IMG/VR virus record: IMGVR_UViG_3300045988_129036 | Location: 1 to 36,189 of that record | DNA: 36,189 bases | Source: a virus | Strand: one strand, 5' to 3' | Shown: positions 1 through 36,189 of the stretch, in pieces | Position numbering within the stretch: position 1 is the stretch's first letter | Layout: the number at the start of each line of letters is the position of its first letter | Position numbers and translations under genes: made by a program | Notes under the pieces: generated by a model | The model's database searches: none | What the model was told of the DNA's origin: nothing | Seen by the model: only the letters and a program-made list of their open reading frames with translations

Positions 1-56
1 TGCAGGGGGGGGTAGGTACATTTTGCAGGGGGGGGTAGGTACATTTTGCAGGGGGA
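1..56. repeat. Left-terminal tandem repeat, unit TAGGTACATTTTGCAGGGGGGGG (23 bp), about 2.4 copies. Identical to the right terminus.
   Basis: Direct reading: tgcaG8 taggtacatttt gcaG8 taggtacatttt gcaG5. The same string closes the window. Confidence 0.9.
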
Positions 57-110
57 AATAGAAGTTAAATAAATAGAAGAATCTAAATCGAAGAATCTAA
101 ATCGAAGACG
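56..110. repeat. AT-rich island carrying tandem 14-bp repeat AAGAATCTAAATCG x2 (77-104) and AAATAGAAG x2.
   Basis: Direct reading. Composition contrasts sharply with the >60% GC surroundings. Sits between the G8 repeat array and the initiator-like gene. Confidence 0.8.
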
Positions 111-213
111 CGCGCGGGGCGCGGCGTGTGAGATTGCGGGCTACCCCCCCCCGGTGCTATCCTGAAAACACCAAACCCACCCCTTGCTAAAAATCACGAA
201 AGGACAACCACCC

Positions 214-1146
214 ATGAGCATTACCGCGATCATGGCAGCAGGCTACGTTACCCACACCCCTACCGGCGAGCAGATGAAGCCGTCCAGCCTCTCAACGTTG
301 AAGGCTCTCGCTTTCTGCACCGGCGAACATTCCAATTCGTGCTACCCGTCCGTGCGCACCTTGCAGGAGATGACAGGGCACAGTGTCCGAACGATTCGCG
401 CGGCCTTGAACGACTTGGAAGAGATGGGTTTTATCACCCGCGCCGCCCGTGCTGGTACTTCCACCGTCTACGCTCTCCAGATTGATGTGATGCGAGCGCA
501 CCACCGCCGCCGCCGCTGGACTGAAACCCGTGACACTGGAAACCCGTACGCAGGCGACCATAACGCCGTAACCGTAGTAGATGAAATCCCCGTTGAGGAA
601 CAGTCGGTAAATGTCAAGCGCATCAACTTTGCAGAAGCCCCTGTAGAGACGGTAGAGGAAACCCCCGCGCCCATACCCGCTGTACCCGCACCGGTACAAG
701 CAGAACTAATCCCCGCCCCGGTCAAGAAGAAGACCAAGAAGGGCGACACTACCCCCGCGCTTGATGAAGCGTTCAACGAGTTCTACAAGCACGCGTACCC
801 GCGCAAGATGGAGCCGTTGAAGGCGCGCCGCGCGTTTGAGAAGGCTGTGAAGAACGGCGCAGACCCGCGCGACATTATCGAAGGCGCGCGCCGTTTCGCC
901 GCCGCTACCGCAACCAAGGGTAAAACCTATATCCCCTACCCGGCTTCGTGGCTAAACGCGGGCGGCTGGATGAACGAGGCGGGCGATATTGCCCCGGTAG
1001 AACCTACCCCCTGGCAGAAGAAGACAGCGCGTCTTGTGCAGTCTATGCAAGCCGCCGCCGTGGTGAATAACGCGCCCGCGCTAACCGGCGTAGCACCCGC
1101 TACCGCTCCCGCCGCTCCCCTGGCTATCGAGCCCGGTTACGTCTAA
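214..1146 (+). CDS. HTH (winged-helix) replication initiator / replisome-organizer-like protein.
   Basis: ATG 214 follows the SD cgaaaggac. N-terminal HTH motif SVRTLQEMTGHSVRTIRAALNDLEEMGFI. C-terminal motif FNEFYKHAYPRK...YPASWLNAGGWMNE, typical of phage Rep/DnaD-like C-terminal domains. The ORF track gives 184 (TTG) as an alternative start. Confidence 0.55.
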   Translation: MSITAIMAAGYVTHTPTGEQMKPSSLSTLKALAFCTGEHSNSCYPSVRTLQEMTGHSVRTIRAALNDLEEMGFITRAARAGTSTVYALQIDVMRAHHRRRRWTETRDTGNPYAGDHNAVTVVDEIPVEEQSVNVKRINFAEAPVETVEETPAPIPAVPAPVQAELIPAPVKKKTKKGDTTPALDEAFNEFYKHAYPRKMEPLKARRAFEKAVKNGADPRDIIEGARRFAAATATKGKTYIPYPASWLNAGGWMNEAGDIAPVEPTPWQKKTARLVQSMQAAAVVNNAPALTGVAPATAPAAPLAIEPGYV

Positions 1147-1157
1147 GGAGCGGCGAC

Positions 1158-1622
1158 ATGAACAAGCAAGAATGTGCAACGTTCTACGCACAGGCGGCAA
1201 AGGTTGATAGCCGCCTCCCTGATCGTGAATTTGACGAGTTCGACGCGTGGGAAATGCTTCTAGCCGATATTCCCCCCAAGTTCGCGCCTATGATTTTCCG
1301 CGAGATTTACCGGCGTGTTCAGGTTCAGCAGCTACAGCCGGGGCATATTGTTGAGGCATGGGAAACCGTGCGTAAGGCGGTGAACGCCGCTATTGCCCGG
1401 TGCCTGTCTTTCGAGAAGCGCACGCGCGAGCTGGACGTGTCAGACCATGAAGATGCCACGAAATTTAACGAGATTGTGGAAGCGCATAACGCGGCTGTGG
1501 ATTCGCTACCGGGTGAGGTAGCGGCGGCCAATGGGTTTAGCCGCAAGGAGCCGGTGCCTGTACCGGGTGAGCGTGTACCCGCGCCCGCCCCGGCGTGGTT
1601 TAAGTCACTGCAAAAAAGTTAG
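1158..1622 (+). CDS. Hypothetical protein, likely co-transcribed with the initiator.
   Basis: ORF of 154 aa lying 12 nt after the upstream stop, in the same orientation. Confidence 0.55.
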   Translation: MNKQECATFYAQAAKVDSRLPDREFDEFDAWEMLLADIPPKFAPMIFREIYRRVQVQQLQPGHIVEAWETVRKAVNAAIARCLSFEKRTRELDVSDHEDATKFNEIVEAHNAAVDSLPGEVAAANGFSRKEPVPVPGERVPAPAPAWFKSLQKS

Positions 1623-1687
1623 GTTCTGGCTTGCGCCGGGCTTCTAAGTAGGTTTATACTATAAATGTAAGGCAATGAAGACCTTAC
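1623..1687 (+). promoter_or_regulatory. Early promoter cassette copy 1: -35 TTGCGC (about 1631-1636), -10 TATACT (1655-1660), leader hairpin GTAAGG/CCTTAC (1667-1687).
   Basis: Near-identical to the sequences at 3711, 6050, 7903 and 35866 (inverted). Sigma70-like spacing of 18 nt. Confidence 0.7.
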
Positions 1688-1715
1688 GAAAGACCCAAAC
1701 CGAAAGGAAACCGAA

Positions 1716-2126
1716 ATGTTCGGCATCACCCGCAACCCCGCAAACGAGAAGTACCTCACCGCAGACCTGGGCGGCGACACCACCGCCGTAAAGCTTCTGG
1801 TACAGCCCGATTACATCGCCGGCACTCATTACGTCATGATTGACCACAAGAGTGCTATGAAGCTTGCAAACCCCAAGAAGCCCGGTAAGTGGATTCAGGA
1901 ACTCCGACAGGGACTACGACAGCACAACGGCGCGGCTCAGCTCTGGAGCACCACACCCGAACCCGGTAAGGGTGCGCTAGTCACCGCATGGAAGACCGAG
2001 GATTCAATTAACTATCTCGACCTTGCTAACGTCATTCGCGCTATCGAAGACCGAGCACCGGATAGCCACAAGGCTAACGCCGCTATCCTCCGTGACCTTG
2101 AACGTGAAGTTTTAAAGAACTTCTAA
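1716..2126 (+). CDS. Hypothetical early protein, first gene of cassette 1.
   Basis: ATG preceded by cgaaaggaaaccgaa. 136 aa. Confidence 0.7.
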   Translation: MFGITRNPANEKYLTADLGGDTTAVKLLVQPDYIAGTHYVMIDHKSAMKLANPKKPGKWIQELRQGLRQHNGAAQLWSTTPEPGKGALVTAWKTEDSINYLDLANVIRAIEDRAPDSHKANAAILRDLEREVLKNF

Positions 2127-2150
2127 CCCGCCGGTAACCGGCAAACCAAA

Positions 2151-2174
2151 GCCCCGCCCGGTGATGGGCGGGGC
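2151..2174 (+). terminator. GC-rich hairpin CCCCGCCC-ggtgat-GGGCGGGG with no U tract.
   Basis: 8-bp GC stem 25 nt after the stop of 1716..2126. Same class as the hairpins at 6340 and 8206. Confidence 0.4.
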
Positions 2175-2195
2175 AACCACCACCGAAAGAAGGAC

Positions 2196-2408
2196 ATGAT
2201 GAAGAACCTCATCACCCGCTACCCGCGAACCATCGGGTACGCCGTAATAGCAGCACTACAGCTAACCGCATTTTTCGCGGCCATGCTGAATAACCGGCTA
2301 GACCCGGCGCACATCTCAAACGTGCTTCTCTCTGTAATCGTCGTTTGCTGTGGCTTTGAAATTGACATGCTCAAGCTTGAGAAGAAGGATACCCGCCGTG
2401 AAGATTAA
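2196..2408 (+). CDS. Small membrane protein (2 predicted TM).
   Basis: Hydrophobic stretches AVIAALQLTAFFAAML and VLLSVIVVCCGF. SD gaaagaagga. Confidence 0.5.
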   Translation: MMKNLITRYPRTIGYAVIAALQLTAFFAAMLNNRLDPAHISNVLLSVIVVCCGFEIDMLKLEKKDTRRED

Positions 2409-3312
2409 CACTCTCATGCGCCGCGCGACCCCCGCGCCCGCCCCCGGCTCCGACGAATGGAAGCGCAAGATTACCGCCTCCAAGGTGGCATCTGTGGTCT
2501 GTAAAAGCCCGTGGACTTCCAGGTTTGCGCTACATGCTGAGATGACCGGCCGCTACGAGGCAGACCCGATTAACCCGGCGGTATTGGAAGCCGGTAATAT
2601 TCTGGAACCGGCGGTAGCGGATTGGTTTCAGCTGCACAACCCCGACGTAGAAGTGCGTGAGTGCAAGAAGCGCAACACTCCCGTATGGTGGGTCGCGCGC
2701 GATAGTGAAGACTTTGCCGCCACTCCCGATCGTATCCTAGTCGATAAAGCGACGGGTGAGGTCACCGCGCTACTGGAAATCAAGACCGCGCGCGTCGCCT
2801 CCGAATGGGGCGAAGAAGGTACCGACGAAATCCCTGAGCACTACCGACTACAGGCGCTTTGGCAGATGAAATGTACCGGCGTAAAGACCGTGATTTTTGC
2901 TGTGCTACATGCCGGGCTGAGGTTCGCTACCTACCGCGTGGACTGGAACCGCTACACGGTGGCAAAGCTTACGGCGGCGGCAACCGATTTTATGGACGCG
3001 GTGCGCACCGGACGCACACCCGATTACAAGGAAGAGCCGGGCGCGTTCTCCACCTACGAAGTGCTCCGCTATTATTTCCCTGAGTGCAACGGTGAAGCCG
3101 TTATGTTGAGTGATGATCTGGTCTACCGTACCCGCCGCGCTAAGCGCCTAAAGCGATTGGCCGCGCGTGCTGAGGATATCGTCAAGAATGAGCTAACCGC
3201 TGTAATGGGGAACGCGAGCGCTGGCGTTGATTACGCGAACCGCACCGTAGCGCGCCGTTCACAGCGAAAGACCCCCAAGGGTTTTAGCCGCTCGTGGGTG
3301 ACTATGGTCTAG
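2398..3312 (+). CDS. YqaJ-like viral recombination exonuclease (PD-(D/E)XK).
   Basis: GTG 2398 follows the SD aaggat. Motifs ITASKVASVV, LEIKTAR, EHYRLQALWQM match the YqaJ/lambda-exo family. Overlaps the upstream gene by 11 nt. Confidence 0.65.
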   Translation: MKINTLMRRATPAPAPGSDEWKRKITASKVASVVCKSPWTSRFALHAEMTGRYEADPINPAVLEAGNILEPAVADWFQLHNPDVEVRECKKRNTPVWWVARDSEDFAATPDRILVDKATGEVTALLEIKTARVASEWGEEGTDEIPEHYRLQALWQMKCTGVKTVIFAVLHAGLRFATYRVDWNRYTVAKLTAAATDFMDAVRTGRTPDYKEEPGAFSTYEVLRYYFPECNGEAVMLSDDLVYRTRRAKRLKRLAARAEDIVKNELTAVMGNASAGVDYANRTVARRSQRKTPKGFSRSWVTMV

Positions 3313-3318
3313 GGGTGT

Positions 3319-3678
3319 GTGATGATTGACTGGATCAATGAAATTTCATACACCGGGTTTTTCGCCTGGTTGGTAGCAGCTGTACACCCGCTAATTATGG
3401 TTACCGCCGTGTGTGCTCTTACCGGCGCGGTAGCGCATCTTTTGGCGCAGCGAATTGTGAAGGCACCGGCTGAGGATAGGGCGGGGCGACATCTAGCCTT
3501 GTGCTTAGGTTTCCCGTTCTGGCTTATCGCATGGAGCTACACCACGTATGCGTGTTTCAAGGCTCACGGCGTGAATGATGGTGAGCCGATAGTATCGGTT
3601 ATGGCTGTATGCGTTCCCCTGTATTTCTGGTTGTTTATCTATTGGTCTAACCGGGTGTTCGCTAAGCTGGAAGATTGA
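3319..3678 (+). CDS. Integral membrane protein (3-4 TM).
   Basis: Strongly hydrophobic segments FFAWLVAAVHPLIMVTAVCALTGAV, FPFWLIAWSYTTYACF, AVCVPLYFWLFIYW. Confidence 0.6.
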   Translation: MMIDWINEISYTGFFAWLVAAVHPLIMVTAVCALTGAVAHLLAQRIVKAPAEDRAGRHLALCLGFPFWLIAWSYTTYACFKAHGVNDGEPIVSVMAVCVPLYFWLFIYWSNRVFAKLED

Positions 3679-3710
3679 TAAGTGACCCGTTTCACTAGAT
3701 TTTCTTTAGC

Positions 3711-3789
3711 CCTGGCTTGTTTTTCTCTCACAGATAGGTTTATACTATAAATGTAAGGAAGAACAAAGACACCAAGTCGGAAACCTTAC
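3711..3789 (+). promoter_or_regulatory. Early promoter cassette copy 2: CTGGCTTG -35, -10 TATACT (3740-3745), leader hairpin GTAAGG(3752)-25 nt loop-CCTTAC(3789).
   Basis: Same core AGGTTTATACTATAAATGTAAGG as the other copies. Confidence 0.7.
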
Positions 3790-3816
3790 AGACCCAAACC
3801 GAAAGGACACAGAATC

Positions 3817-4188
3817 ATGGAACTCACCGCTAAGGACTTCACCGCACAGCTGGCCGCAAAGGGCTACACCCCCGGCATTGACTTCGACGTCGATAACGGC
3901 GACGAACCGAACACCGTGAAGCTCACCGGCGCGATCACTTTCAACGGCGCAGATGGTTTTGTGGACTTCCGCAACGCAGAGGAATACTACAACATCACTT
4001 GTGAAGAGTATGAAGACCTCGCAATGTTCACTAAGACCTACGCACTGGCTGAACAGCAGATCGAGGAAATCGAGACCGGCGGCGAACCCGGCAACGAAGA
4101 ACAAGAAGAAAAGTTCTTCGACGCGTGGCGCGCAGCACTCGACGGTATCGGTATCGACCTGAACGACATCAAGGTTTCCAGCCGATAA
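3817..4188 (+). CDS. Highly acidic 123-aa protein. Candidate DNA-mimic / anti-restriction or other anti-defence protein.
   Basis: About 28 D/E against about 9 K/R. First and only gene of promoter cassette 2. SD ccgaaaggacac. Confidence 0.7.
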   Translation: MELTAKDFTAQLAAKGYTPGIDFDVDNGDEPNTVKLTGAITFNGADGFVDFRNAEEYYNITCEEYEDLAMFTKTYALAEQQIEEIETGGEPGNEEQEEKFFDAWRAALDGIGIDLNDIKVSSR

Positions 4189-4211
4189 GCACCGCACACA
4201 TTACCGATAGA

Positions 4212-4255
4212 CCCGCCGGGCGGCGGTACCTCCGAATACCCGCCGCCGCCCGGCT
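4212..4255 (+). terminator. GC hairpin GCCGGGCGGCGG ... CCGCCGCCCGGC with no U tract.
   Basis: 12-bp stem 25 nt after the stop of the acidic gene. Confidence 0.4.
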
Positions 4256-4283
4256 CACACCACCACCGAAAGGAACCTACACC

Positions 4284-5102
4284 GTGAGCACTGAAATTCA
4301 GCAATTCACAGGCACCGCCTTAGCGGTTAAGAACGATTTTGTAGACCCAATCAAGAACGCGATTACCGGCGCGCTACCGCTATTCATGCGTGAAGACTCC
4401 GACGCATGGATTAGGGGCGCAATTCTGGAGGTTAGCAAGACTCCGCAGCTTGTCCAGTACGCCAAAAACAATTTTCCAGCATTTGCGGGCACGCTAACCC
4501 GTGTCGCCGCGCTGGGTTTACCGCTCAACCGTGACATGGTGTACGTGCTCCCCTTTGCATCGAAACAGGGGATGCAGGCCAACGTTATCATGGGTTGGCG
4601 CGGTGAGCTTGAACTCATTTATCGCGCGGGCAACGTCGAGACCGTCCACCATGAAGAAATCTTTGAGAATGACCGGTACGAATGGAGGGACGGCGCCCCC
4701 CGCCTTATCGCTCCCGCACCCGAGGGACAGCGCGGCAAAATCAAGTATGCCGTAGCGTGGGCTGTGCTAAAGTCAGGAAAGACTAGCCAATACGCGGTTG
4801 TAGCGGCCGACCGAATCGCCGCCGCAAAGAAAGCATCACGCGGCTCTAGCTCACCGTCCAGCCCGTGGGTACAACACGAGGTAGCAATGTGGCGCAAAAC
4901 GGCAATTCATGAGCTGGCTAATTTCGTTGATTCGAGTGTGGAGGAATGCCGCCCGGAACGCCTGGAAGCCATGAAGACCCGCGCCGCCCTCGCTTTGGAC
5001 GTGGAGCGCGAAAAGACCGCGCGCCTGGCAGAGGAAAACCGCGCTATGGAACTCAAGATTAAGCTACTGGAACTGGAAGCAAACAAGAAGGAAGAGGCAT
5101 AA
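4284..5102 (+). CDS. recT: RecT-family single-strand annealing protein.
   Basis: GTG 4284 follows the SD cgaaaggaac. Motif VYVLPFASKQG...NVIMGWRGELELIYRAG resembles the RecT core. C-terminal coiled coil. Pairs with the YqaJ-like exonuclease. Confidence 0.65.
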   Translation: MSTEIQQFTGTALAVKNDFVDPIKNAITGALPLFMREDSDAWIRGAILEVSKTPQLVQYAKNNFPAFAGTLTRVAALGLPLNRDMVYVLPFASKQGMQANVIMGWRGELELIYRAGNVETVHHEEIFENDRYEWRDGAPRLIAPAPEGQRGKIKYAVAWAVLKSGKTSQYAVVAADRIAAAKKASRGSSSPSSPWVQHEVAMWRKTAIHELANFVDSSVEECRPERLEAMKTRAALALDVEREKTARLAEENRAMELKIKLLELEANKKEEA

Positions 5103-5104
5103 AG

Positions 5105-5416
5105 ATGACCCTAAACGCAACCCGTACACACTACATTAACGATTGCAATTACTCACATATTCGCTGGCGCGGCTTCGTAAAGCGCCTAGCCCTCCGTGCA
5201 GCATCTCTAGCAGATTCGCGCGGCGTGCTGAATGTTGGGCGTGACAAGTTTTTTAAGGACGTGCTAGGCGACGAGTACAACCCCCGCTATGTCTCGCATA
5301 TCATTACTGACTGTAACCGCATCGAACATGTCAGCTTTGCGACCATTGGCCATAGCGCGAGCGCGCGGCTAGTAATTGTGTTTGATGACGAGAAGATTAA
5401 GGCAAAGAAGGGTTAG
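5105..5416 (+). CDS. Hypothetical protein.
   Basis: ORF of 103 aa tightly packed between recT and ssb. Confidence 0.5.
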   Translation: MTLNATRTHYINDCNYSHIRWRGFVKRLALRAASLADSRGVLNVGRDKFFKDVLGDEYNPRYVSHIITDCNRIEHVSFATIGHSASARLVIVFDDEKIKAKKG

Positions 5417-5419
5417 GAC

Positions 5420-5968
5420 ATGTCTTCTACCGTAACCGTACTAGGAAACATTGGCGCAGGCGCAGAGCTCCGCGAAACCGCAAACGGCACCCCGTACCTG
5501 ACTTTCACCGTTGCAGATTCGCGCTCTAAATGGGACGCTAACGCGGGTAAGTTCGTAACGCTAAACACCACGTGGCGACGTGTAACCACCTTTAAGGGGC
5601 TGGATTACCTACCCGATCAGCTCATCAAGGGCGCGACCGTGTACGTATCCGGTAGCGAGGAATTGCGCACATGGGACAAGGAAGACGGGACGAAGGGTTA
5701 CAGTCTGGATGTTATCGCGCACGTGGTGAAGGTTGCATCAAAGCCTACCGATAGCGGGGCACCCGCTCAGGTTCAGACTAACCCGGTTGCCGCGTACCCG
5801 GCGGGCACCGCCGCCCCGGTTCAGCAGCAGGGATACGCACAGCAGGCCGCGCCGGTACAGGGTGGCTATGCGCAACAGCCCGCCGGTTCGCCGCCGGCCG
5901 GTTACCACGCCGCCGCTAATGCTTCGAGCGGATGGGGTGGGTACGATAGCGGCGCAACCCCGTTCTAG
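5420..5968 (+). CDS. ssb: Single-stranded DNA-binding protein (OB fold, Gly/Gln-rich tail, C-terminal D-x-x-x-P-F).
   Basis: N-terminus VTVLGNIGAGAELRETANGTPYLTFTVADSR...W.RVT.F. C-terminus ...GYDSGATPF. Confidence 0.8.
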   Translation: MSSTVTVLGNIGAGAELRETANGTPYLTFTVADSRSKWDANAGKFVTLNTTWRRVTTFKGLDYLPDQLIKGATVYVSGSEELRTWDKEDGTKGYSLDVIAHVVKVASKPTDSGAPAQVQTNPVAAYPAGTAAPVQQQGYAQQAAPVQGGYAQQPAGSPPAGYHAAANASSGWGGYDSGATPF

Positions 5969-6049
5969 ACCCTAGCCCGCTAACCCCCGGTGATTTTTTC
6001 GCCGAGGGTTTCGCCTTGTCTAGGGCGCGAAAAAAATTTAGAAAAATCT

Positions 6050-6117
6050 TTGATTCTGGCTTGCTTTCCACCCCACACAAGGTTTATACTATAAATGTAA
6101 GGCAATGAAGACCTTAT
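6050..6117 (+). promoter_or_regulatory. Early promoter cassette copy 3: A/T-rich UP-like region 6036-6055, -35 TTGCTT (6061-6066), -10 TATACT (6085-6090), leader hairpin 6097-6117.
   Basis: 55 bp identical to copy 4. Confidence 0.75.
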
Positions 6118-6144
6118 AAAAGACCCAAACCGAAAGGAACCCCA

Positions 6145-6324
6145 ATGCTGGAGTACTACGAAATTCAGGAATACGTTACCGAGGTTGCAGAAGGTAACTA
6201 CCCGTTCCGAGTAATCGACGCAGTAACCGCCGACATTTTCGAGCGAGGTATAGCCGTCGAGATGGAAGACCTCAAGGCATACCCGCGAACCCGTGAACTC
6301 CTCAAGATTCACAACGCGGCCTAA
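6145..6324 (+). CDS. 59-aa acidic protein, paralogue of 8010..8189. Absent from the ORF track because it is under 60 aa.
   Basis: ATG 6145 follows ccgaaaggaacccca. Starts MLEYYEIQEY, against MLAQYEILES in the paralogue. Confidence 0.6.
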   Translation: MLEYYEIQEYVTEVAEGNYPFRVIDAVTADIFERGIAVEMEDLKAYPRTRELLKIHNAA

Positions 6325-6339
6325 CAATCAACCAACTAA

Positions 6340-6363
6340 GCCCCGCCCCTCACCGGGCGGGGC
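6340..6363 (+). terminator. GC hairpin GCCCCGCCC-ctcacc-GGGCGGGGC with no U tract.
   Basis: Lies 16 nt after the stop of the 59-aa gene. Confidence 0.4.
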
Positions 6364-6377
6364 ACCCCTAGCAAATC

Positions 6378-6785
6378 ATGGCAAATCAGTTTTGCAAATC
6401 AGAAACATGCTCACAGTGCGGTAACCCCTGGGAAAAACCCGATCTAGTCAATTGCCGCCGGTGCAAACAGCGCGAACTCAAACGCGCCCGCACCCGCCGC
6501 AAAAAGGCAGAGAAAGCGGATGAGCTAGAGCGTAAGCGCAAAAATAAGGAATGGGCCGCAACGCATTGCTATATTTGCGGTGCGCTTATGGACAATCCAG
6601 ACCCTAAGTGCTACCGGTGCCGCGAACGCATGAAGCGCCGCGAAAAATGGCTAGAACGCCGCGCCGAACGCATGAAACCGAACGACCTTAACAACCTAGA
6701 AGGTGTTCGCAAGTTTTTGCAGGCGCGCCGCCGCCGCCTCAACCAGAACCCGAACTACCCCCCCCTAGAAGGAATCGACATATGA
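6378..6785 (+). CDS. Basic double zinc-ribbon protein (four CxxC pairs), putative nucleic-acid-binding regulator.
   Basis: CSQC...CRRC and CYIC...CYRC. Very K/R-rich. Confidence 0.55.
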   Translation: MANQFCKSETCSQCGNPWEKPDLVNCRRCKQRELKRARTRRKKAEKADELERKRKNKEWAATHCYICGALMDNPDPKCYRCRERMKRREKWLERRAERMKPNDLNNLEGVRKFLQARRRRLNQNPNYPPLEGIDI

Positions 6786-6997
6786 AAGACCCCATCACCG
6801 GGCGACCGCTAACCATCACCGCCGCCGCGCTCGCAACCGTACCGACCGGTTTTTTTCTCGCCGCGCTCATCACCGGCGGCGGCGTGAATATCGGCAGCTC
6901 TATTCTCACCCTCGCTACGTGGTGGCTAGGCGTCGCAATCGTCGCTATCTTTGAATCCAACCCGCGCCCCGCGCGAACCAACCGAGAGGAACACTAA
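6782..6997 (+). CDS. Small membrane protein.
   Basis: Hydrophobic 71-aa ORF. ATGA overlap with the upstream gene. Confidence 0.45.
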   Translation: MKDPITGRPLTITAAALATVPTGFFLAALITGGGVNIGSSILTLATWWLGVAIVAIFESNPRPARTNREEH

Positions 6998-6999
6998 CC

Positions 7000-7638
7000 A
7001 TGCAGATTATCGAACGGGAAAAATACAAGGCACCCGCCCGGCTCTGGCACATTATCACTACCGAGGCGGTAGACAAGCGGCGCACCACGGCTATTATTTT
7101 TGCTGACACCCCGGCGGAAATCTACATTTCGCTTGTCGCCGCTGCTGAAATCGCCGGTGTGAGTGAAACCGGCGTACGTGACTATCTCAAGAAGCGCGGC
7201 GCACGGCCTAAGCTTTTCACCGTCCCGGCTAACGTCAATCGCACCGGACAGGCGCGAAAAATGGCGTTTATCGACCCGCTTATCATGTTCCATATTCTGC
7301 TAGCGGTAGACCCGCGCGAACAGAGTGTTAGGGGCTGGTTCCATGACCTCGTGAACTTTAACGGCGACGAAATCCCCAAATTTTGGGGCATGACGAATGT
7401 TCGAGAGGCGGCGATTATCGAAGATAAGGCGCGCGAAATAGAACTACTGGAAATTCCAGACCTTACCCCGCCCGCCCGCGTCGAGTTTGACGCTACCGGC
7501 GGCATCGAGCAGCTGAACCGCATCATCTCAGACCTAAACGCCCCGTACCATGTACGAGTGAAGGCATTGCAGATTCAGCATGAGGTGAATCAGCTCGCTA
7601 ATACCGTAGACAAGCTGTACGTAGGAAAGGACGCATAA
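7000..7638 (+). CDS. Hypothetical protein with a central HTH-like segment.
   Basis: SD gagaggaac. IYISLVAAAEIAGVSETGVRDYLKKRG resembles an HTH. Confidence 0.5.
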   Translation: MQIIEREKYKAPARLWHIITTEAVDKRRTTAIIFADTPAEIYISLVAAAEIAGVSETGVRDYLKKRGARPKLFTVPANVNRTGQARKMAFIDPLIMFHILLAVDPREQSVRGWFHDLVNFNGDEIPKFWGMTNVREAAIIEDKAREIELLEIPDLTPPARVEFDATGGIEQLNRIISDLNAPYHVRVKALQIQHEVNQLANTVDKLYVGKDA

Positions 7639-7639
7639 A

Positions 7640-7879
7640 ATGCGTATGACTCGACAGGTCATCAAGCTCTCAAGCTACCGCTATACCATGACTTTTAACA
7701 TCGAGTTTGATTACGACGTACCGGGTGACCGGCGCGAAAAGCTAGGCGCGGCGTTGCGGTCTATTATCGGTCTGCACGACCTGAATTATAAGAGCAGTCA
7801 GGCGATTAAGAAGACGGGTAGCGGTGAATCCGCGCGTGAGGTCTGGAGCTATGAGGTGGTGGAGACTGAGGATATTTAG
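7640..7879 (+). CDS. Hypothetical protein.
   Basis: ORF of 79 aa, 1 nt after the upstream stop. Confidence 0.5.
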   Translation: MRMTRQVIKLSSYRYTMTFNIEFDYDVPGDRREKLGAALRSIIGLHDLNYKSSQAIKKTGSGESAREVWSYEVVETEDI

Positions 7880-7902
7880 CCGAAAAATTTTCTAAAATTT
7901 CT

Positions 7903-7983
7903 TGGTTTCTGGCTTGCTTTCCACCCCACACAAGGTTTATACTATAAATGTAAGGAAAACAAAGGAACCACCGGAAACCTTAC
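7903..7983 (+). promoter_or_regulatory. Early promoter cassette copy 4: -35 TTGCTT (7914-7919), -10 TATACT (7938-7943), leader hairpin 7950-7983.
   Basis: Identical core to copy 3, with an A/T-rich upstream region. Confidence 0.75.
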
Positions 7984-8009
7984 AAACCCAAACCGAAAGG
8001 AGCCCGCAA

Positions 8010-8189
8010 ATGCTGGCACAGTACGAAATCCTCGAATCCCTCACCACCGCAGCACACGGCGAAATCGAACCCGCCGTTTTGGAAGCCGCGGCAACCGAAA
8101 TCTGGGAAAACAACGACTTCGAGACTATGGCCGACTTCGAGGCCTACACCGAAACCTGGGAAATCGTCGCAAAGCACGACGCTAAGTAA
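8010..8189 (+). CDS. 59-aa very acidic protein (paralogue of 6145..6324). Candidate anti-defence protein.
   Basis: ATG 8010 follows ccgaaaggagcc. About 15 D/E against 2 K. The ORF track gives a longer 7902 start, which is unlikely because it spans the promoter. Confidence 0.65.
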   Translation: MLAQYEILESLTTAAHGEIEPAVLEAAATEIWENNDFETMADFEAYTETWEIVAKHDAK

Positions 8190-8205
8190 CCCCTAACCAC
8201 ATAAC

Positions 8206-8234
8206 GCCCCGCCCGGCTAACCACCGGGCGGGGC
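8206..8234 (+). terminator. GC hairpin GCCCCGCCCGG-ctaacca-CCGGGCGGGGC with no U tract.
   Basis: 11-bp stem 17 nt after the stop. Confidence 0.45.
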
Positions 8235-8267
8235 ACCAAACCCCAAACCCGAAAGGAACAACACGAA

Positions 8268-8666
8268 ATGGCAATCTCTTACGCAGAGGCCAAAATCTGG
8301 AATGATGAACACCTCCCGATCTTGAACCGTATCGGTATCGTAACGGGCGTACGAGATGCCCCGTACAACAACCCCGGCGGTGCATCTGTCGAAATTGTCT
8401 ACACGGTACACGGCAGGATTAAGCGCGCGGCTGATCTAATGTCAAACGACCATAGCGAATTTGCCCTAGCCGTCGCCGAACGTCTGAAAGAATTTGCGGG
8501 TATCGGCGGCAAATACGAGCAGCAGGCCGCCGCCGTAATCAACGCCCTAACCGAACTCGACCGCGTACACCGCATTACCGAACTAGAGCATGAGGCAGAA
8601 GAGCACGAGCGCGCCGCTAGCAAGGCGTACAAGAAGATTAAGGCTCTCATCTCATTCAAGCCATAA
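8268..8666 (+). CDS. Hypothetical protein.
   Basis: SD cgaaaggaac. 132 aa. Confidence 0.6.
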   Translation: MAISYAEAKIWNDEHLPILNRIGIVTGVRDAPYNNPGGASVEIVYTVHGRIKRAADLMSNDHSEFALAVAERLKEFAGIGGKYEQQAAAVINALTELDRVHRITELEHEAEEHERAASKAYKKIKALISFKP

Positions 8667-8680
8667 CCAAGGAACAGAAC

Positions 8681-9160
8681 ATGCTAGAGGAAATCCTAAA
8701 CGCGTTCGACCCGCCCGCGTTCTTCACCACCGCCCCGCTCTGGACAGTATTCACGCTACCCGGCGCAGCAATGGGCATATTCACCACGATTAGCGCACTA
8801 GTGATAATGTGCCTAGTCTACCCATACAAGGACGCAGACCCCGATTACGAGTTTAGAGGCGTACTAGCCTGTGTAATCGCAGGTATAGGCGGCGCCCTGG
8901 TCTTCGTAACCGACATTATCGCCCTGGTCATGTTCTGGGACGGCGCGTTACACCCGGCGCTCACCGCTCACGGCGTAAACGGCAATAGCGCCCGTATCCT
9001 ATCCGACATGATCGCGATCATCACTAATACGGCGGCTTTTGCTGCACCCATCGCCGTGTGCGTAGAAATTTTTCGAGCTTTGGTGCGTCGAGAAGACCGC
9101 CGCGTTACCCGCCGTAGGTACCTGGAAGCCCGCGCCTTGGAGCGTGCAACCCGTGACTAA
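8681..9160 (+). CDS. Integral membrane protein (about 4 TM).
   Basis: SD aaggaac. Long hydrophobic helices. Confidence 0.55.
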   Translation: MLEEILNAFDPPAFFTTAPLWTVFTLPGAAMGIFTTISALVIMCLVYPYKDADPDYEFRGVLACVIAGIGGALVFVTDIIALVMFWDGALHPALTAHGVNGNSARILSDMIAIITNTAAFAAPIAVCVEIFRALVRREDRRVTRRRYLEARALERATRD

Positions 9161-9335
9161 ACGCCGTGACCGCAACCGCAAAGCGCGCTACCGTAAACGG
9201 GTCTACCGCTTCTACTGGAGCGACGCAGAAGAACACGCCGTTACGCGCATCATCGCCGCGCGAATCCTACGAGCGACCCAAACCGAGAGAGAGGAAACAC
9301 ACCATGAAACGCTACGAGCGCGAGGTGTTCGCTAA
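9153..9335 (+). CDS. Possible small, highly basic protein.
   Basis: Fills a 140-nt gap. KRRDRNRKARYRKRVYRFYW. Start uncertain (GTG 9144 or 9153). Confidence 0.25.
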   Translation: MTKRRDRNRKARYRKRVYRFYWSDAEEHAVTRIIAARILRATQTEREETHHETLRARGVR

Positions 9336-9750
9336 CGTACCCATCATGAGTACATACAACCAGTACACCGATAAAAACGACTTCCCGAACCACGGAATAA
9401 TTTACAGGGCACTACCCGACCAACTCATACGCGCCGCTTTCATGCTCACATGGAAAGCCGGGGCAAGCTGGAAAGAAGACCGCAACCGGACGATTCGAGA
9501 CGCACTAGCGGCTATCGACACAGCTAAAGCGGTGTACCCGTCCATGCGCATTAAGAAACCGCTAGCAAGTCAAGATGAGCAGCTGGATTATTTGCTAATG
9601 ATCGTAGAAGGCATCAATAACGCAGGCGACTTCAAGAGCAAGCACCAATACGGCGCATTGAAAGCTATTCTGTCCGCACAGAAGACCGGCGACATTGCCC
9701 ACCTGGGCGTTGCAGGCATGAACCTGTACGGCTGGGCAGGCGAACAATAA
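9304..9750 (+). CDS. Hypothetical protein.
   Basis: ATG 9304 follows gagagaggaaacac. The N-terminal extension from 9166 is low-complexity and unlikely. Confidence 0.6.
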   Translation: MKRYEREVFANVPIMSTYNQYTDKNDFPNHGIIYRALPDQLIRAAFMLTWKAGASWKEDRNRTIRDALAAIDTAKAVYPSMRIKKPLASQDEQLDYLLMIVEGINNAGDFKSKHQYGALKAILSAQKTGDIAHLGVAGMNLYGWAGEQ

Positions 9751-9775
9751 CCACCACCGAAAGGAACACCGAATC

Positions 9776-9871
9776 ATGCTAGGCACCATTTGCGAACGGT
9801 GCGGGGAACCGACCTACAACTACACGCCCGAATGCTTCGACTGCATGATGCGGGACAGTTGGACACCCTAA
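9776..9871 (+). CDS. 31-aa zinc-ribbon mini-protein (CxxC-x10-CxxC).
   Basis: ATG follows cgaaaggaacaccgaatc. MLGTICERCGEPTYNYTPECFDCMMRDSWTP. Not in the ORF track. Confidence 0.4.
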   Translation: MLGTICERCGEPTYNYTPECFDCMMRDSWTP

Positions 9872-9887
9872 CGAAAGGAACAACACC

Positions 9888-10235
9888 ATGAGCAAGATCA
9901 ATTACCACGCACAAACTTTCAGCCTTGACGCTCTCGACCTAGACCCCATCGAGAAGAACATCATCAAGAGCACCCTAAGCGGCTTGTATGGCGAGGATAC
10001 GCACTACACCGTATGGAAGCTCGCTAACGCCTGGTCTGTCTGTTTCATGCAGGACGGCGCATCAGACCTCGCAATCAACGAACACCTGGATGAGCCGGGC
10101 GACGCATGGCTAATTACCCGCGCTACTGACGAATCTAAGGCGCTGCACTTCTTCTATCTTGAAGACTCGACAGGTGAAGAATGGCTCAGGGGCGGCAAAG
10201 TCTATTTCTTCCGACGCAAGCGCACCAATGACTAG
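9888..10235 (+). CDS. Hypothetical protein.
   Basis: SD cgaaaggaacaacacc. 115 aa. Confidence 0.6.
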   Translation: MSKINYHAQTFSLDALDLDPIEKNIIKSTLSGLYGEDTHYTVWKLANAWSVCFMQDGASDLAINEHLDEPGDAWLITRATDESKALHFFYLEDSTGEEWLRGGKVYFFRRKRTND

Positions 10236-10458
10236 CGCCGTTTGCGCTCGCTGTGGATGCCCCGCCTCCGAGTACACGGCATCATGCAGGGCGTGCTATA
10301 TGCGCCGCCGGTACCGTGCCAGGGCACCGCAGAAACCCGCCGCTACCCGGCAACCCGTCTACACCGGGCGCGTTGCCGGGCGGGTACCCGCCCTAAACAA
10401 CCTAATCCCGAACAGTAAGGCCCCCAATGACCGAATATTCGCGCACCAAACTCTATGA
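10228..10458 (+). CDS. Putative zinc-ribbon protein (CARCGC...CRAC).
   Basis: ATG overlaps the upstream stop (ATGACTAG). Two CxxC pairs. Confidence 0.35.
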   Translation: MTSAVCARCGCPASEYTASCRACYMRRRYRARAPQKPAATRQPVYTGRVAGRVPALNNLIPNSKAPNDRIFAHQTL

Positions 10459-10636
10459 GCACCTTGACGCACTCCGCACAACCCTAGAAGAAGCCGTAGA
10501 CGCAGGCGATATCTACGAGACCCCCGCCCGTGCGCTCTGTGCTCAACTCTGGGAAATTGAGGAACACGCAAAGCTCAAAGAGCGCCTAACCGCCGCTTAC
10601 CACAAGCCCCGCAACCGCTGGAAAGGAAACCGATAA
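10427..10636 (+). CDS. Hypothetical protein.
   Basis: ORF of 69 aa. ATGA overlap with the downstream gene. Confidence 0.45.
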   Translation: MTEYSRTKLYEHLDALRTTLEEAVDAGDIYETPARALCAQLWEIEEHAKLKERLTAAYHKPRNRWKGNR

Positions 10637-11313
10637 TGACCGACAAGAAGACCGAAAAGGTAGTGTACGAGAACCCCGACGGGGAAATCTTCGACGTAGA
10701 CGGCGCGTTCAAGCGACACCCCGCAATCGCCCCCGGTAAAGCAAACATTGATTTGTGGGTGAAAGCAGAGCGACACAACGGGCTTTACTTCGAGCTTAGG
10801 CTCAGCTCTGGAACAATGGCCCGCCTTGTCCAGATCCTCAACGCCGCCCCGGTGGACGGCAACCCGCTAAACGCAATCGTGAACCTGTGGGGTGACACCA
10901 CCGTCTCCGAATGCGAACGAGAAGACATCTTGCATTTCCTCTCAGAGAATGGGTATGATGCCACGCTGGAAAACATCGCCGCCGGATACCTCTACACGGT
11001 AGATAACAAGCAGCCGCTAGAAATTGACGTAGTGGCCGACGAACGCAAGGAATACGCCGTAGCCCGCGTTCTCTCTAAGGTGATTAAAACCACCGTCGAT
11101 ACTGGCACCGGATATAACGGACTATCCTACGTTGCGCTACGAATCCCCGGTGAAAACGTGGTAATCGAGACCTTCAAGAACGAGCTAGGCGAACCCGCCG
11201 TTACTCTCACCATGAGCCTAAAATCCCTGAGCTACGTGACCGAGCTACTCATCGCCGGGCGGCTCGCGACTGAGGTAGCAGACGCACAAAAGAAGAAGCC
11301 ATTCAATGACTGA
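10636..11313 (+). CDS. Hypothetical protein.
   Basis: SD ggaaaggaaacc. 225 aa. Confidence 0.65.
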   Translation: MTDKKTEKVVYENPDGEIFDVDGAFKRHPAIAPGKANIDLWVKAERHNGLYFELRLSSGTMARLVQILNAAPVDGNPLNAIVNLWGDTTVSECEREDILHFLSENGYDATLENIAAGYLYTVDNKQPLEIDVVADERKEYAVARVLSKVIKTTVDTGTGYNGLSYVALRIPGENVVIETFKNELGEPAVTLTMSLKSLSYVTELLIAGRLATEVADAQKKKPFND

Positions 11314-11593
11314 CATGACCGAACTACGCGCCCGGCTAACCGACGCAATAACCCGCGCCGCCCGCGCAGGGAAAACCGACCCGGCGCAAGAGCTGCACGA
11401 AGCAATTATGAACGGCTTCCCCGCCGCCCCGCTAACCGCCCTTGAGGTTACGACCAAGACCGAGGCGCTACCTCAAACCCGAGGAAAGCCAGAGATCATA
11501 ACATGGGTAACCATTACCGCAACCACAAGCGTCGCCGGCGCCTACTACCTAGCAGAACTCGCTAACCAACTCTCAGAGAAAGGCAACCAATGA
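11306..11593 (+). CDS. Hypothetical protein, tandem paralogue A.
   Basis: Shares ELH..I..FPA.P......T.......T.T.T..V.GAYY with the next ORF. Confidence 0.55.
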   Translation: MTDMTELRARLTDAITRAARAGKTDPAQELHEAIMNGFPAAPLTALEVTTKTEALPQTRGKPEIITWVTITATTSVAGAYYLAELANQLSEKGNQ

Positions 11594-11868
11594 TAACCGG
11601 TGAAGACAACGCCCGCGTCATAAAGAAACTCACAAACGAGCGCAACCCCCTAAACGAACTACACAGAACCCTAATCCAAGCTTTCCCCGCAACACCCGGC
11701 GACATAAGCATCACCGGGGAAACCACCGCATACCCCGGCAAAGACGGCAAAGCAGAAGTACACGATAACGTAACCGTAACCATAAACACCACCGTCACCG
11801 GCGCGTACTACATCGCAGACACACTATACGAACTACTCCGCAAAGCGCGGGAAACCCACAGCAAATAA
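11590..11868 (+). CDS. Hypothetical protein, tandem paralogue B.
   Basis: ATGA overlap with paralogue A. Conserved C-terminal TVTGAYYIA motif. Confidence 0.55.
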   Translation: MITGEDNARVIKKLTNERNPLNELHRTLIQAFPATPGDISITGETTAYPGKDGKAEVHDNVTVTINTTVTGAYYIADTLYELLRKARETHSK

Positions 11869-11959
11869 GCTATACTAGACACGTAACATTCATACCGAAT
11901 GAATACGGCGTTGTTTCGAGTGGATCCTAGAACCACGAAACCCACACAGGATATTCCAT

Positions 11960-11993
11960 AGCCCCGGCGACCGATAACGTAGGAGCCGGGGCT
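11960..11993 (+). other. 9-bp GC hairpin AGCCCCGGC ... GCCGGGGCT at the early/late boundary.
   Basis: Direct reading. Preceded by two smaller inverted repeats, one containing GGATCC. Confidence 0.4.
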
Positions 11994-12017
11994 AACCCTT
12001 ACCCAAGAAGTGAGGCC

Positions 12018-34091: not shown

Positions 34092-34190
34092 GCGTGCTAT
34101 AATGTCGGTGTTCCTTAAATTGTTCCAGTGATGGGATGTTGAGAGAATATCGGTGGAGTTGTCACACTGTCGGGTGTTGGCACAGAAGAA

Positions 34191-34230
34191 ATCCCCTAGC
34201 TTCGTGGTTGGTGCTAGGGGGTTTCTTTTT
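34191..34230 (+). terminator. Canonical intrinsic terminator CCCCTAGC-loop-GCTAGGGGG followed by TTTCTTTTT, at the convergence of the late operon and the leftward operon.
   Basis: Perfect 8-9 bp stem plus a U tract. The only classical U-tract terminator other than 20123 and 36030. Confidence 0.75.
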
Positions 34231-34238
34231 GCCCGGTG

Positions 34239-35846: not shown

Positions 35847-35865
35847 CGGCTGGTTTTCCTTTCGA

Positions 35866-35905
35866 CATTTACACTATAAACCTAGATGCAAGGTGGGCAC
35901 AAGGT
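35866..35905 (-). promoter_or_regulatory. Fifth, inverted copy of the early promoter: CTTGTGC-16-AGGTTTATAGTGTAAATG. Drives the leftward RusA operon.
   Basis: The reverse complement aligns position-for-position with copies 1-4 but lacks the GTAAGG leader hairpin. Confidence 0.65.
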
Positions 35906-36029
35906 TAAACACTGTGAGTATAGTCACTCTTACAGAGTGAAGGGGCGCATCTCATATATGCTATAATTGACAGTATCGAGAGATAACTAAGCGGTTTTGT
36001 CCTCTTTTGTGAAGCTTTCGGGTTGGGTT

Positions 36030-36069
36030 AAATATCCCTCTAATCTACGGATTGGGGGGATATTTTTTT
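36030..36069 (+). terminator. Intrinsic terminator AAATATCCC-loop-GGGATATTT followed by TTTT, near the right terminus.
   Basis: 9-bp stem plus a U tract on the + strand. Nothing annotated upstream except a TGCTATAAT motif at 35959. Confidence 0.5.
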
Positions 36070-36123
36070 ACCCAAAAACACCCGCTACCCCCCCCTGTTT
36101 TAATACCCCTACCAAAATGTGCC

Positions 36124-36189
36124 TAGGTACATTTTGCAGGGGGGGGTAGGTACATTTTGCAGGGGGGGGTAGGTACATTTTGCAGGGGG
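36124..36189. repeat. Right-terminal tandem repeat, 23-bp unit x 2.9. The last 55 bp are identical to window positions 1-55.
   Basis: Direct reading. Confidence 0.9.

Follow-up and report, generated by a model that had tools for sequence, protein, structure and literature searches.

Repeated promoter-leader cassettes as candidate heads of the early operons in an uncultured actinophage

What is the role of a sequence that a phage repeats ahead of four different small genes? This question is raised by IMG/VR virus record IMGVR_UViG_3300045988_129036, of which we analyzed positions 1 to 36,189 (36,189 nucleotides (nt) on one strand, hereafter the window). A 23-mer, AGGTTTATACTATAAATGTAAGG, occurs there in exactly four plus-strand copies, for an expected count of 0 (no match in 100 shuffles), and each copy belongs to a longer cassette that leads into a small open reading frame (ORF). 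The original prediction had interpreted these loci as four self-contained, moron-like units of immediate-early function built from one duplicated promoter cassette. Immediate-early timing is plausible as far as the DNA can indicate. For the cassettes as a whole, we consider it reasonably probable that they belong to a set of five family-conserved promoters of the housekeeping-sigma type, four of them with a conserved 5′ untranslated region, which stand at the front of the early operons for replication and recombination in a lytic actinobacteriophage and act by the mechanism proposed below.

Anatomy and conservation of the cassettes

All four copies contain the same parts in the same order: a CTGGCTTG(C/T) block, a TTG placed 18 bp before TATACT, a hairpin, ACCCAAACCGAAAGGA, an ATG, the small ORF that it opens, and a GC hairpin. 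This is the order originally described, and the starts listed then (1623, 3711, 6050, and 7903) correspond to CTGGCTTG(C/T) blocks that begin at 1626, 3712, 6056, and 7909. The first hairpin is formed by a GTAAGG...CCTTA(C/T) inverted repeat that begins 7 nt past TATACT in every copy. ACCCAAACCGAAAGGA, which is present in four exact copies and one copy with two mismatches, lies 6-9 nt ahead of the ATG, and the ORFs that follow encode 136, 123, 59, and 59 amino acids (aa). The four cassettes (P1 to P4) and a fifth, leftward promoter candidate are laid out as follows, with SD standing for Shine-Dalgarno:

1600-1715, plus strand: P1 promoter-leader cassette, with an A-tract, the −35 block CTGGCTTGC (1626-1634; TTGCGC 1631-1636), TATACT (1655-1660), the core (1650-1672), the leader hairpin (1667-1687), and the SD leader ACCCAAACCGAAAGGA (1693-1708)
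3690-3816, plus strand: P2 promoter-leader cassette, with CTGGCTTGT (3712-3720; TTGTTT 3717-3722), TATACT (3741-3746), the core (3736-3758), a long-loop leader hairpin (3753-3789), and the SD leader (3792-3807)
6028-6144, plus strand: P3 promoter-leader cassette, with phased A/T tracts, CTGGCTTGC (6056-6064; TTGCTT 6061-6066), TATACT (6085-6090), the core (6080-6102), the leader hairpin (6097-6117; CCTTAT as its 3′ arm, hence one G-U pair), and the SD leader (6123-6138)
7881-8009, plus strand: P4 promoter-leader cassette, with A/T tracts, CTGGCTTGC (7909-7917; TTGCTT 7914-7919), TATACT (7938-7943), the core (7933-7955), a long-loop leader hairpin (7950-7983), and the SD leader (7986-8001)
35847-35902, minus strand: fifth, leftward promoter, with TTGTGC (35902-35897), an 18-bp spacer, TATAGT (35878-35873), the core GGTTTATAGTGTAAATGT (35882-35865), and the SD CGAAAGGAAA (35864-35855), ahead of the ATG of the RusA gene at 35846

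Over 49 nt (6054-6102 and 7907-7955), from the −35 block through the 5′ arm of the hairpin, P3 and P4 match exactly, and the A/T-rich stretch upstream of them is alike but not identical. The identity of about 55 bp first ascribed to these two copies, which was said to take in an A/T-rich stretch resembling an upstream promoter element, therefore has to be shortened to that span. Similarly, a count of five copies had been given, and a fifth does exist, but it lies on the minus strand, is diverged, and has no leader hairpin.

The leftward promoter adjoins a divergent control region (35903-35970) that contains a conserved, partly palindromic block (CACTGTGAGTATAGTCACTCTTACAGAGTG). A rightward extended −10 sequence, TGCTATAAT, is located at 35959-35967, and another extended −10-like sequence (TGCTATCCT, about 158-166) is a possible promoter element for genes 1 and 2.

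Relatives of the phage were gathered by exact-pattern and RecT-based searches of IMG/VR, to which one contig of a larger assembly collection was added. At least 11 related early regions were recovered, from Human Microbiome Project and oral metagenome assemblies, and these carry the cassette at the same positions, before orthologous genes. A conservation profile was compiled from 11 genomes, which contribute 41 unique copies in the rightward orientation and 6 in the leftward one. At their upstream end, the rightward copies show an A/T-rich zone and then a conserved GGCTTGC; a stretch of 15-16 nt follows in which no sequence is conserved and the length is fixed (40 of 41 copies), and the downstream zone, AGGTTTA-yrs-TATAAATGTAAGG, is almost invariant. 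Variants of the −10 (TATACT, TACACT, TACGCT, TATAGT, TATGCT, and TACAAT) differ at positions −10 to −8 only, with two exceptions among the 41 copies (CATAGT and TGTACT). Such confinement to the three middle positions is the behavior expected of a TAnnnT element read by a housekeeping sigma factor. The −35 agrees with this assignment: TTG(C/T)nn stands 18 bp before TATACT in all four cassettes, and TTGTGC stands 18 bp before TATAGT in the leftward copy. A scanner built on the Escherichia coli consensus does not call the cassettes because their −35 shares just three of six bases (TTG) with TTGACA. Anatomy and conservation over the relatives are thus those of promoters, as had been proposed, and the cassettes look like host sigma-A-like promoters.

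The core and both arms of the hairpin stay the same even in the related contig L055, whose P2 protein has only 68% identity. Such patterns indicate that the cassettes are under constraint or homogenization. Moreover, their occurrence at the same positions across the family, together with diverged spacers, implies that they are ancient and positionally fixed rather than recent duplicates within the window. Of the cassette duplication originally envisaged, a recent event can therefore be set aside; what stands is that the cassettes recombine with each other, as described below. L055 itself starts within the P2 leader (1-12) and stops within the P4 core (3720-3788). Since this contig ends at the repeats, assemblers evidently break there, and contig ends at cassettes should not be taken for transcript ends.

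When leaders were folded from the G of GTAAGG, the predicted 5′ end, the hairpin started at nucleotide 1 or 2 in 41 of 41 cases; the distance of 7 nt from TATACT to the stem likewise holds for all 41 copies. The arms comprise 6-7 bp with a spacer of 5-25 nt between them, and the computed folds range from −5 to −11 kcal/mol. The stem alone is conserved, and loops of four unrelated types occur: a short one (caaYgaaga-like) and three long ones with an inner stem of GAC/GTC, GAGG/CCUC, or GG(G)/CC(C), the last of which grows on both sides jointly (from GG/CC to GGG/CCC). Changes in the 3′ arm (CCTTAT and TCTTAC) are compatible with G-U pairing, and the SD sequence remains unpaired. A search of IMG/VR for cassettes with variant 5′ arms (GGCTTG-N16-18-GGTTTANNNTATAAAT) returned only the same family and two chance matches (GC 42-46%).

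A comparable layout was found in the jumbo-phage-like contigs that carry homologs of one cassette-borne gene (see below). These contigs have a repeated promoter of their own, TTGCAC-18-TACTAT with a TGn extension, whose sequence is unrelated to the cassettes; in at least eight such units, a hairpin 7-8 nt past the −10 is followed by a CA-rich linker and GAAAGG. Examples of this promoter (TTGCAC-18-TGgTACTAT) lie at 9540-9627, 10950-11027, and 3900-3992 of contig L043. That the same layout is built from unrelated sequence in a jumbo phage lends the leader independent support and suggests that the layout is a property of the presumably shared host.

Stem-loops at the 5′ terminus and strong 5′-proximal SD sequences protect messages against RppH, RNase E, and RNase J (reviewed in PMC3997798). 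If transcription starts at the predicted G, the cassette leaders resemble the stabilizers of ompA, papA, ermC, aprE, phage SP82, and T7 phi10 (PMC3997798) in having a hairpin 0-2 nt from the 5′ end, then a single-stranded region, and a strong SD near the 5′ end. They differ from these in their short stem (6-7 bp, −5 to −11 kcal/mol) and in that the 5′ end is a predicted one.

The leaders also recall the start-associated sequences (SAS) and extended SAS (ESAS) of Cluster K mycobacteriophages and Cluster EF Microbacterium phages (PMC3203893, PMC7302621). SAS are 13-mers, GGGATAGGAGCCC or GGGAAAGGACCCC, that occur 10-19 times per genome at 3-8 bp from start codons; ESAS are 17-bp imperfect inverted repeats with a 4-13-bp spacer, located immediately upstream of SAS, and were judged not to be RNA-pairing (PMC3203893, PMC7302621). 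Both systems place an over-conserved, SD-containing actinophage motif before non-structural genes, with an upstream inverted repeat, a variable spacer, and different gene families in different phages. In contrast to SAS, ACCCAAACCGAAAGGA is present four times, lies 6-9 nt from the ATG, and deviates from the 13-bp consensus; in contrast to ESAS, the arms are 6-7 bp long, pair across 5-25 nt, and follow an explicit promoter, which is not part of the SAS/ESAS definition. The cassettes may nevertheless supply a hypothesis for these long-unexplained actinophage repeats, namely that SAS/ESAS-like sequences are transcript-leader elements.

First-slot genes, GC hairpins, and exchange

Each cassette is the sole recognizable promoter for a block of four to about 14 tightly packed genes, and the P4 operon continues for roughly 14 genes after its cassette. 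The first gene of each block (hereafter the first-slot gene), its GC hairpin, and the distal genes are arranged as follows:

1716-2126, plus strand: P1 first-slot ORF, 136 aa, of no known family; an unrelated 120-aa ORF takes its place in L016
2130-2142 and 2151-2174, plus strand: small P1 hairpin and P1 GC hairpin (GCCCCGCCC-GGTGAT-GGGCGGGGC), without a U-tract, followed by the ribosome-binding site of the next gene (2196)
2196-3678, plus strand: P1 distal genes, encoding a 70-aa protein, a YqaJ-like exonuclease (2398-3312), and a 119-aa protein, with no promoter of their own
3817-4188, plus strand: P2 first-slot ORF, 123 aa, net charge −19.5; an unrelated 91-aa ORF is present in L016 and L020
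4212-4253, plus strand: P2 GC hairpin (CCCGCCGGGCGGCGG...CCGCCGCCGCCCGG, 13 bp), without a U-tract, kept when the ORF is swapped
4284-5968, plus strand: P2 distal genes, encoding RecT (4284-5102), a 103-aa ORF, and SSB (5420-5968)
6145-6324, plus strand: P3 first-slot ORF, 59 aa, acidic; absent from L018 and L020, and an unrelated 66-aa ORF in L055
6340-6363, plus strand: P3 GC hairpin (GCCCCGCCC-CTCACC-GGGCGGGGC), without a U-tract, gone where the slot ORF is gone
6378-7879, plus strand: P3 distal genes, encoding an Arg-rich double zinc-ribbon protein (6378-6785) and proteins of 71, 212, and 79 aa
8010-8189, plus strand: P4 first-slot ORF, 59 aa, net charge −12.3; absent from L012, L014, and L019
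8206-8234, plus strand: P4 GC hairpin (GCCCCGCCCGG-CTAACCA-CCGGGCGGGGC), without a U-tract

The claim that the units are self-contained does not survive this arrangement, since each cassette heads a multi-gene block in which the next gene begins 15-34 nt past the GC hairpin. A GC-only hairpin does follow each of the four ORFs, as first noted, but the cassettes do not all use the same one: the GCCCCGCCC...GGGCGGGGC hairpin is common to P1, P3, and P4, with three copies in the window and none elsewhere in it, and the P2 hairpin has a different sequence. The GC stems are 9-13 bp long and are followed by ACCACC, CTCACA, CCCCTA, and CCAAAC, and a T-tract after the hairpin is absent from every copy in the window and in the relatives. 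Hairpins without U-tracts do not terminate mycobacterial RNA polymerase (PMC3993855). Two canonical intrinsic terminators, both with long stems, were found by folding elsewhere in the window; the E. coli-consensus scanner misses both of them:

34184-34232: canonical intrinsic terminator, z = −4.3, with UUUCUUUUU downstream, at the site where late and leftward operons converge; with its upstream A-tract it may work in both directions
36030-36069: canonical intrinsic terminator, z = −6.1, with UUUUUUU downstream, separating the divergent promoter region from the iterons

No promoter-like sequence was recognized between a GC hairpin and the next cassette. Because the distal genes have no other promoter, transcription must cross the GC hairpins, which hence are not efficient terminators; they are probably leaky attenuators or 3′ barriers that would raise the level of the first-slot message.

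Among 24 copies of the GC hairpins in relatives, 98.6% of alignment cells are paired, with one compensatory change (G-C to T-A in the DNA, that is, GC to UA in the RNA) in the stem of L018. In some relatives the loop is the exact reverse complement of its counterpart (GGCTAACCACC versus GGTGGTTAGCC), as seen when the P4 hairpin of the window is compared with L018 and L020 and its P3 hairpin with L017. A loop that has been inverted through the stem arms between relatives implies that the stem alone matters.

All but one of the four first-slot proteins are very acidic (net charge −19.5, −6.4, and −12.3), and the two 59-aa proteins of P3 and P4 are paralogs (36% identity, E = 3e-10). Sequence searches of Pfam, PHROGs, and PDB gave no match for any first-slot protein. 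An AlphaFold2 model of the acidic 123-aa protein from a 23-sequence alignment had a pLDDT (predicted local distance difference test) of 66 and a pTM (predicted template modeling score) of 0.48, and Foldseek comparison of this model with the PDB gave no match under E = 0.18; to call this protein a DNA mimic would be pure speculation. Directly behind the P3 slot, the zinc-ribbon protein encoded at 6378-6785 is Arg-rich, with a net charge of +17.5 and a double CxxC, and two more small zinc-ribbon ORFs lie in the P4 operon (9777-9872 and 10234-10418). All three are possible nucleic-acid-binding regulators.

The first-slot ORFs are exchanged among relatives, with breakpoints at start and stop codons, in agreement with the cargo swapping that had been suggested. 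Replacement of a slot gene spares the leader and hairpin: homology returns exactly at the start codon and right behind the stop codon. Where a slot is empty (P3 in L018 and L020, P4 in L012 and L019), the ORF and its GC hairpin are missing together, and the leader is joined straight to the next core gene. Morons are insertions of promoter, gene, and terminator between conserved genes in lambdoid and other temperate phages. The slots are like morons in that an optional gene with a hairpin is present or absent between the same flanks, as P3 in L018 and L020 and P4 in L012 and L019 illustrate. They differ from them in that the slot ORF uses the operon promoter, has no canonical terminator, and is not distinct in composition (GC 0.52-0.55 and third-position GC 0.62-0.70, with 0.51-0.62 and 0.58-0.71 in the neighbors), and in that the phage looks lytic. 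The term moron-like accordingly fails for promoter, terminator, and composition alike.

Leader loop types are distributed differently over P1-P4 in different phages. In the window, the P4 spacer equals the P3 spacer, and in relatives the two differ, which points to gene conversion. Relative L019 (IMGVR_UViG_3300045988_119263, 33.6 kb) lacks the entire P1 unit, comprising the first-slot ORF, the 70-aa ORF, the YqaJ exonuclease, and orf6: at 1132-1705, a cassette adjoins the end of gene 2 and is followed by the P2 gene. The loss resembles a deletion produced when two cassettes recombine, and the absence of the exonuclease from the P1 locus of L019 implies that this enzyme is dispensable.

Homologs of the acidic P2 gene, 68-76% identical, were also found on jumbo-phage-like contigs of 165-292 kb (L043, which is ERZ28634444 scaffold_4, 292 kb; L046, 282 kb; L053; and L054). 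These contigs have a GC content of 0.53, small ORFs without a Pfam match, and a Cas12f1-like TnpB; the idea that they are host chromosomes was rejected, as they proved jumbo-phage-like on inspection. The homology takes in the spacer from SD to ATG (GAATCATG) and does not include the flanking hairpins. The presence of this gene in such contigs points to gene flow between very different phages, presumably in one host.

Proposed mechanism and its alternatives

We infer transcription of the cassettes, with its starts, leaders, and read-through, from the DNA, and propose the following sequence of events. Host RNA polymerase would bind the A/T-rich tracts, the −35 (TTGyyy, inside CTGGCTTGC), and, across an 18-bp spacer, the −10 (TAyrsT) with its AT-rich discriminator, and would start at or beside the G of GTAAGG, as the conservation pattern suggests. 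The first 21-37 nt of the transcript are computed to form a hairpin that leaves 0-2 nucleotides unpaired at the 5′ end and could protect the message from 5′-end-dependent decay (RppH, RNase E/J). Strong translation would then follow from a linker that is C/A-rich and unstructured and from a 7-nt SD (GAAAGGA) placed 6-9 nt ahead of the ATG. The first gene translated would be an optional, exchangeable accessory gene, a status that comparison with the relatives bears out. Behind it, the very stable GC hairpin without a U-tract would allow transcription to reach the essential distal genes and would probably serve as a 3′ barrier or weak attenuator, such that the first-slot message exceeds the rest. 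Finally, being repeats, the cassettes are substrates for homologous recombination in a phage that encodes an exonuclease/RecT pair, with gene conversion, shuffling of loop types, deletion of whole units, and precise ORF replacement as the outcomes that comparison of relatives shows.

Several observations weigh against parts of this interpretation. The 5′ arm GTAAGG never varies, which leaves the leader stem without true compensatory covariation; a single leader folds only weakly better than its shuffles (z −0.2 to −2.7), and in about 10 of the 41 the stem is interrupted by a bulge or mismatch. The leftward copy has no hairpin at all, so that its promoter would work hairpin-free, and if the −10 were TATAAA(T) rather than TATACT, the 5′ arm would be left untranscribed. 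The GC hairpins, nearly invariant with one compensatory change in 24 copies, leave an RNA-level role unproven. Invariance of GGTTTA and ATAAATGT (39-41 of 41 copies) exceeds what sigma-A would need and could reflect a protein-binding site. Mosaicism, moreover, is not specific to the slots, as orf6, orf9, orf14, orf17, and orf18 are at least as variable.

The invariance of the core is an argument for an explanation at the level of DNA, in which the core, with its palindrome TTTATA-C-TATAAA over the −10, and/or the GTAAGG/CCTTAC repeat would bind a phage or host protein that switches the early operons together, much as has been proposed for ESAS or for stoperator-type repeats. The palindrome is perfect in the four copies of the window and in several leftward copies, the core is common to all five promoters and would permit coordinated control, and candidate binders exist in the 212-aa ORF at 7000-7638, which has a helix-turn-helix (HTH)-like segment, and in the Arg-rich zinc-ribbon protein at 6378-6785. 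We nonetheless think this explanation unlikely. The left half-site is broken in about 16 of 41 rightward copies (TTTACA, TTTACG, and TTTATG) and the right half is invariant, an asymmetry that weakens the idea of a symmetric operator; no repressor, Cro, or integrase family was detected in the window, a repeat spacing of 5-25 nt is easier to reconcile with an RNA stem than with a dimeric DNA site, and the leftward copy lacks the inverted repeat. The original explanation, four self-contained promoter-gene-terminator units that arose from a duplicated cassette with swapped cargo, has the real modular order of promoter, leader, ORF, and hairpin on its side, as well as the joint presence or absence of ORF and hairpin at P3 and P4, the swaps at P1, P2, and P3, and the paralogy of P3 and P4 and of their 59-aa ORFs. 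It becomes decidedly unlikely given that the hairpins lack U-tracts in a genome with canonical terminators elsewhere, that essential-type genes without another promoter begin 15-34 nt past them, that the same promoter drives core genes when a slot is empty, that the GC content of the ORFs matches that of the neighbors, and that fixed orthologous positions with diverged spacers make the duplication ancient.

Two further alternatives would bring in a dedicated phage factor. A device like that of lambda N and nut, in which polymerase halts at the GC hairpins early and reads through them later with the help of a phage antiterminator recruited by the leader hairpin, seems highly unlikely. The loop, which in boxB is the recognition determinant, exists here in four unrelated types shuffled among positions, neither a conserved recognition loop with a boxA nor an Rfam match was found, and the GC hairpins carry no U-tracts. 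The succession of promoter, leader hairpin, first gene, strong hairpin, and distal genes does match the order PL-nutL-N-tL1, and a basic, Arg-rich protein is available (6378-6785, net charge +17.5); however, that protein is itself encoded behind a hairpin in most genomes, the first-slot genes are dispensable and swappable and so cannot encode the antiterminator, and operons with an empty slot keep the leader hairpin without a downstream GC hairpin. That the promoters serve an RNA polymerase or sigma factor specific to the phage is very improbable. The invariant 23-nt core does cover about −17 to +6 of the predicted start, a span like that of T7-type promoters, but ORF and Pfam searches revealed no such gene, the sole ORF above 550 aa encodes the tape measure protein, and both the TTG at a fixed 18 bp and the TAnnnT variation fit host sigma-A.

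With host-type promoters and transcribed leaders as the preferred interpretation, the cassettes are a new example, in an uncultured phage family, of a known way to organize phage early expression. In T7 and T3, promoters A1-A3 are followed by gene 0.3 and then by RNase III hairpins, and SPO1 has a host-takeover module; the first early gene is non-homologous between relatives, being ocr in T7 and SAMase (S-adenosylmethionine hydrolase) in T3. The early regions of T7/T3 and SPO1 likewise have several near-identical strong sigma-70-type promoters at the early end, a small acidic or takeover first gene, hairpins between cistrons, and transcription into distal genes. In the present phage, by contrast, the promoters do not form a cluster but are spread out with one for each operon, the host is actinobacterial, and the GC stems (9-13 bp) are too short for typical RNase III sites. 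Intercistronic stem-loops also set differential operon expression, examples being the repetitive extragenic palindromic (REP) element in malEFG and the hairpins of the puf operon. These resemble the GC hairpins in that a stable hairpin without a U-tract stands behind the promoter-proximal cistron of a polycistronic unit; they differ in that one hairpin sequence is reused here at three positions with an invertible loop, and in that the role here is a presumed one.

This interpretation would yield a regulatory map for uncultured human-oral actinophages, with five promoters, predicted starts, leaders, and operon boundaries. The slots flag small acidic proteins that are likely made first and most and are good candidates for host takeover or anti-defense, and the cassette would provide a compact promoter and 5′ untranslated region part for Micrococcaceae-type expression hosts. 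In addition, the phage illustrates how repeated regulatory cassettes drive mosaicism where a recombinase is encoded, as genes are converted, units deleted, and ORFs exactly replaced. A broader version, which we offer tentatively and hold to be rather unlikely, is that promoter-leader and orientation-independent GC hairpin form a dedicated expression slot whose flanks are portable homology arms for swapping highly expressed early accessory genes, plausibly for counter-defense, between co-infecting phages, including a jumbo phage of about 290 kb with the same acidic gene, and that the convergent hairpin at +1 of both phages reflects an as yet undescribed, host-specific pressure from RNA surveillance or decay.

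Phage genome and host

The first 55 nt of the window recur at its end (1-55 and 36135-36189), and this terminal repeat indicates that the contig is a complete, circular assembly of a genome of about 36.1 kb. The phage looks like an uncultured actinophage of lytic lifestyle. Domain searches identified, on the early side, genes for an HTH_36 initiator-like protein (214-1146), YqaJ exonuclease, RecT, and SSB, and elsewhere genes for HNH, small and large terminase, tail proteins, amidase, and holin; a short leftward block encodes RusA and DUF3310. Pfam-type searches among the ORFs of the window detected no integrase, repressor, Cro, sigma factor, or RNA polymerase family, a tRNA search of the window found none, and no Rfam family matched at gathering thresholds. 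Megablast of the first 12 kb against deposited phages gave no match and hence no close deposited relative; the nearest cultured relatives are Arthrobacter phages, with a terminase identity of about 40%. Endolysin matches in genomes reach 29-41% only and come from Sinomonas, Kocuria, Rothia, Streptomyces, and Fructobacillus. We infer that the uncultured host is probably Rothia or another member of the Micrococcaceae.

A 23-nt iteron, TGCAGGGGGGGGTAGGTACATTT, is present three to four times across the assembly junction (1-110 and 36112-36189 of the window) and is followed by AAATAGAAG and AATCTAAATCGAAG repeats. As the iterons lie directly upstream of the HTH_36 initiator-like gene, they likely mark the replication origin. 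Strand composition flips between 1-12000 and 13000-36000 although the genes remain on the plus strand: in the early region, GC skew is negative and AT skew strongly positive (to +0.38), such that the mRNAs are A/C-rich and G/U-poor, and in the late region GC skew is positive and AT skew slightly negative. Ahead of the HNH and terminase genes, a non-coding gap of 150 nt (11869-12017) holds GCTATACTAGA, with a −10-like TATACT, and three successive hairpins (CATTCA..TGAATG-like, GTTTCG..CGAAAC, and AGCCCCGGC..GCCGGGGCT); this gap may be a late promoter, a leader, or packaging-related. Within the tape measure gene (20948-25438, 1496 aa), seven in-frame 135-bp (45-aa) tandem repeats at 22971-23974 form the region of lowest GC in the genome.

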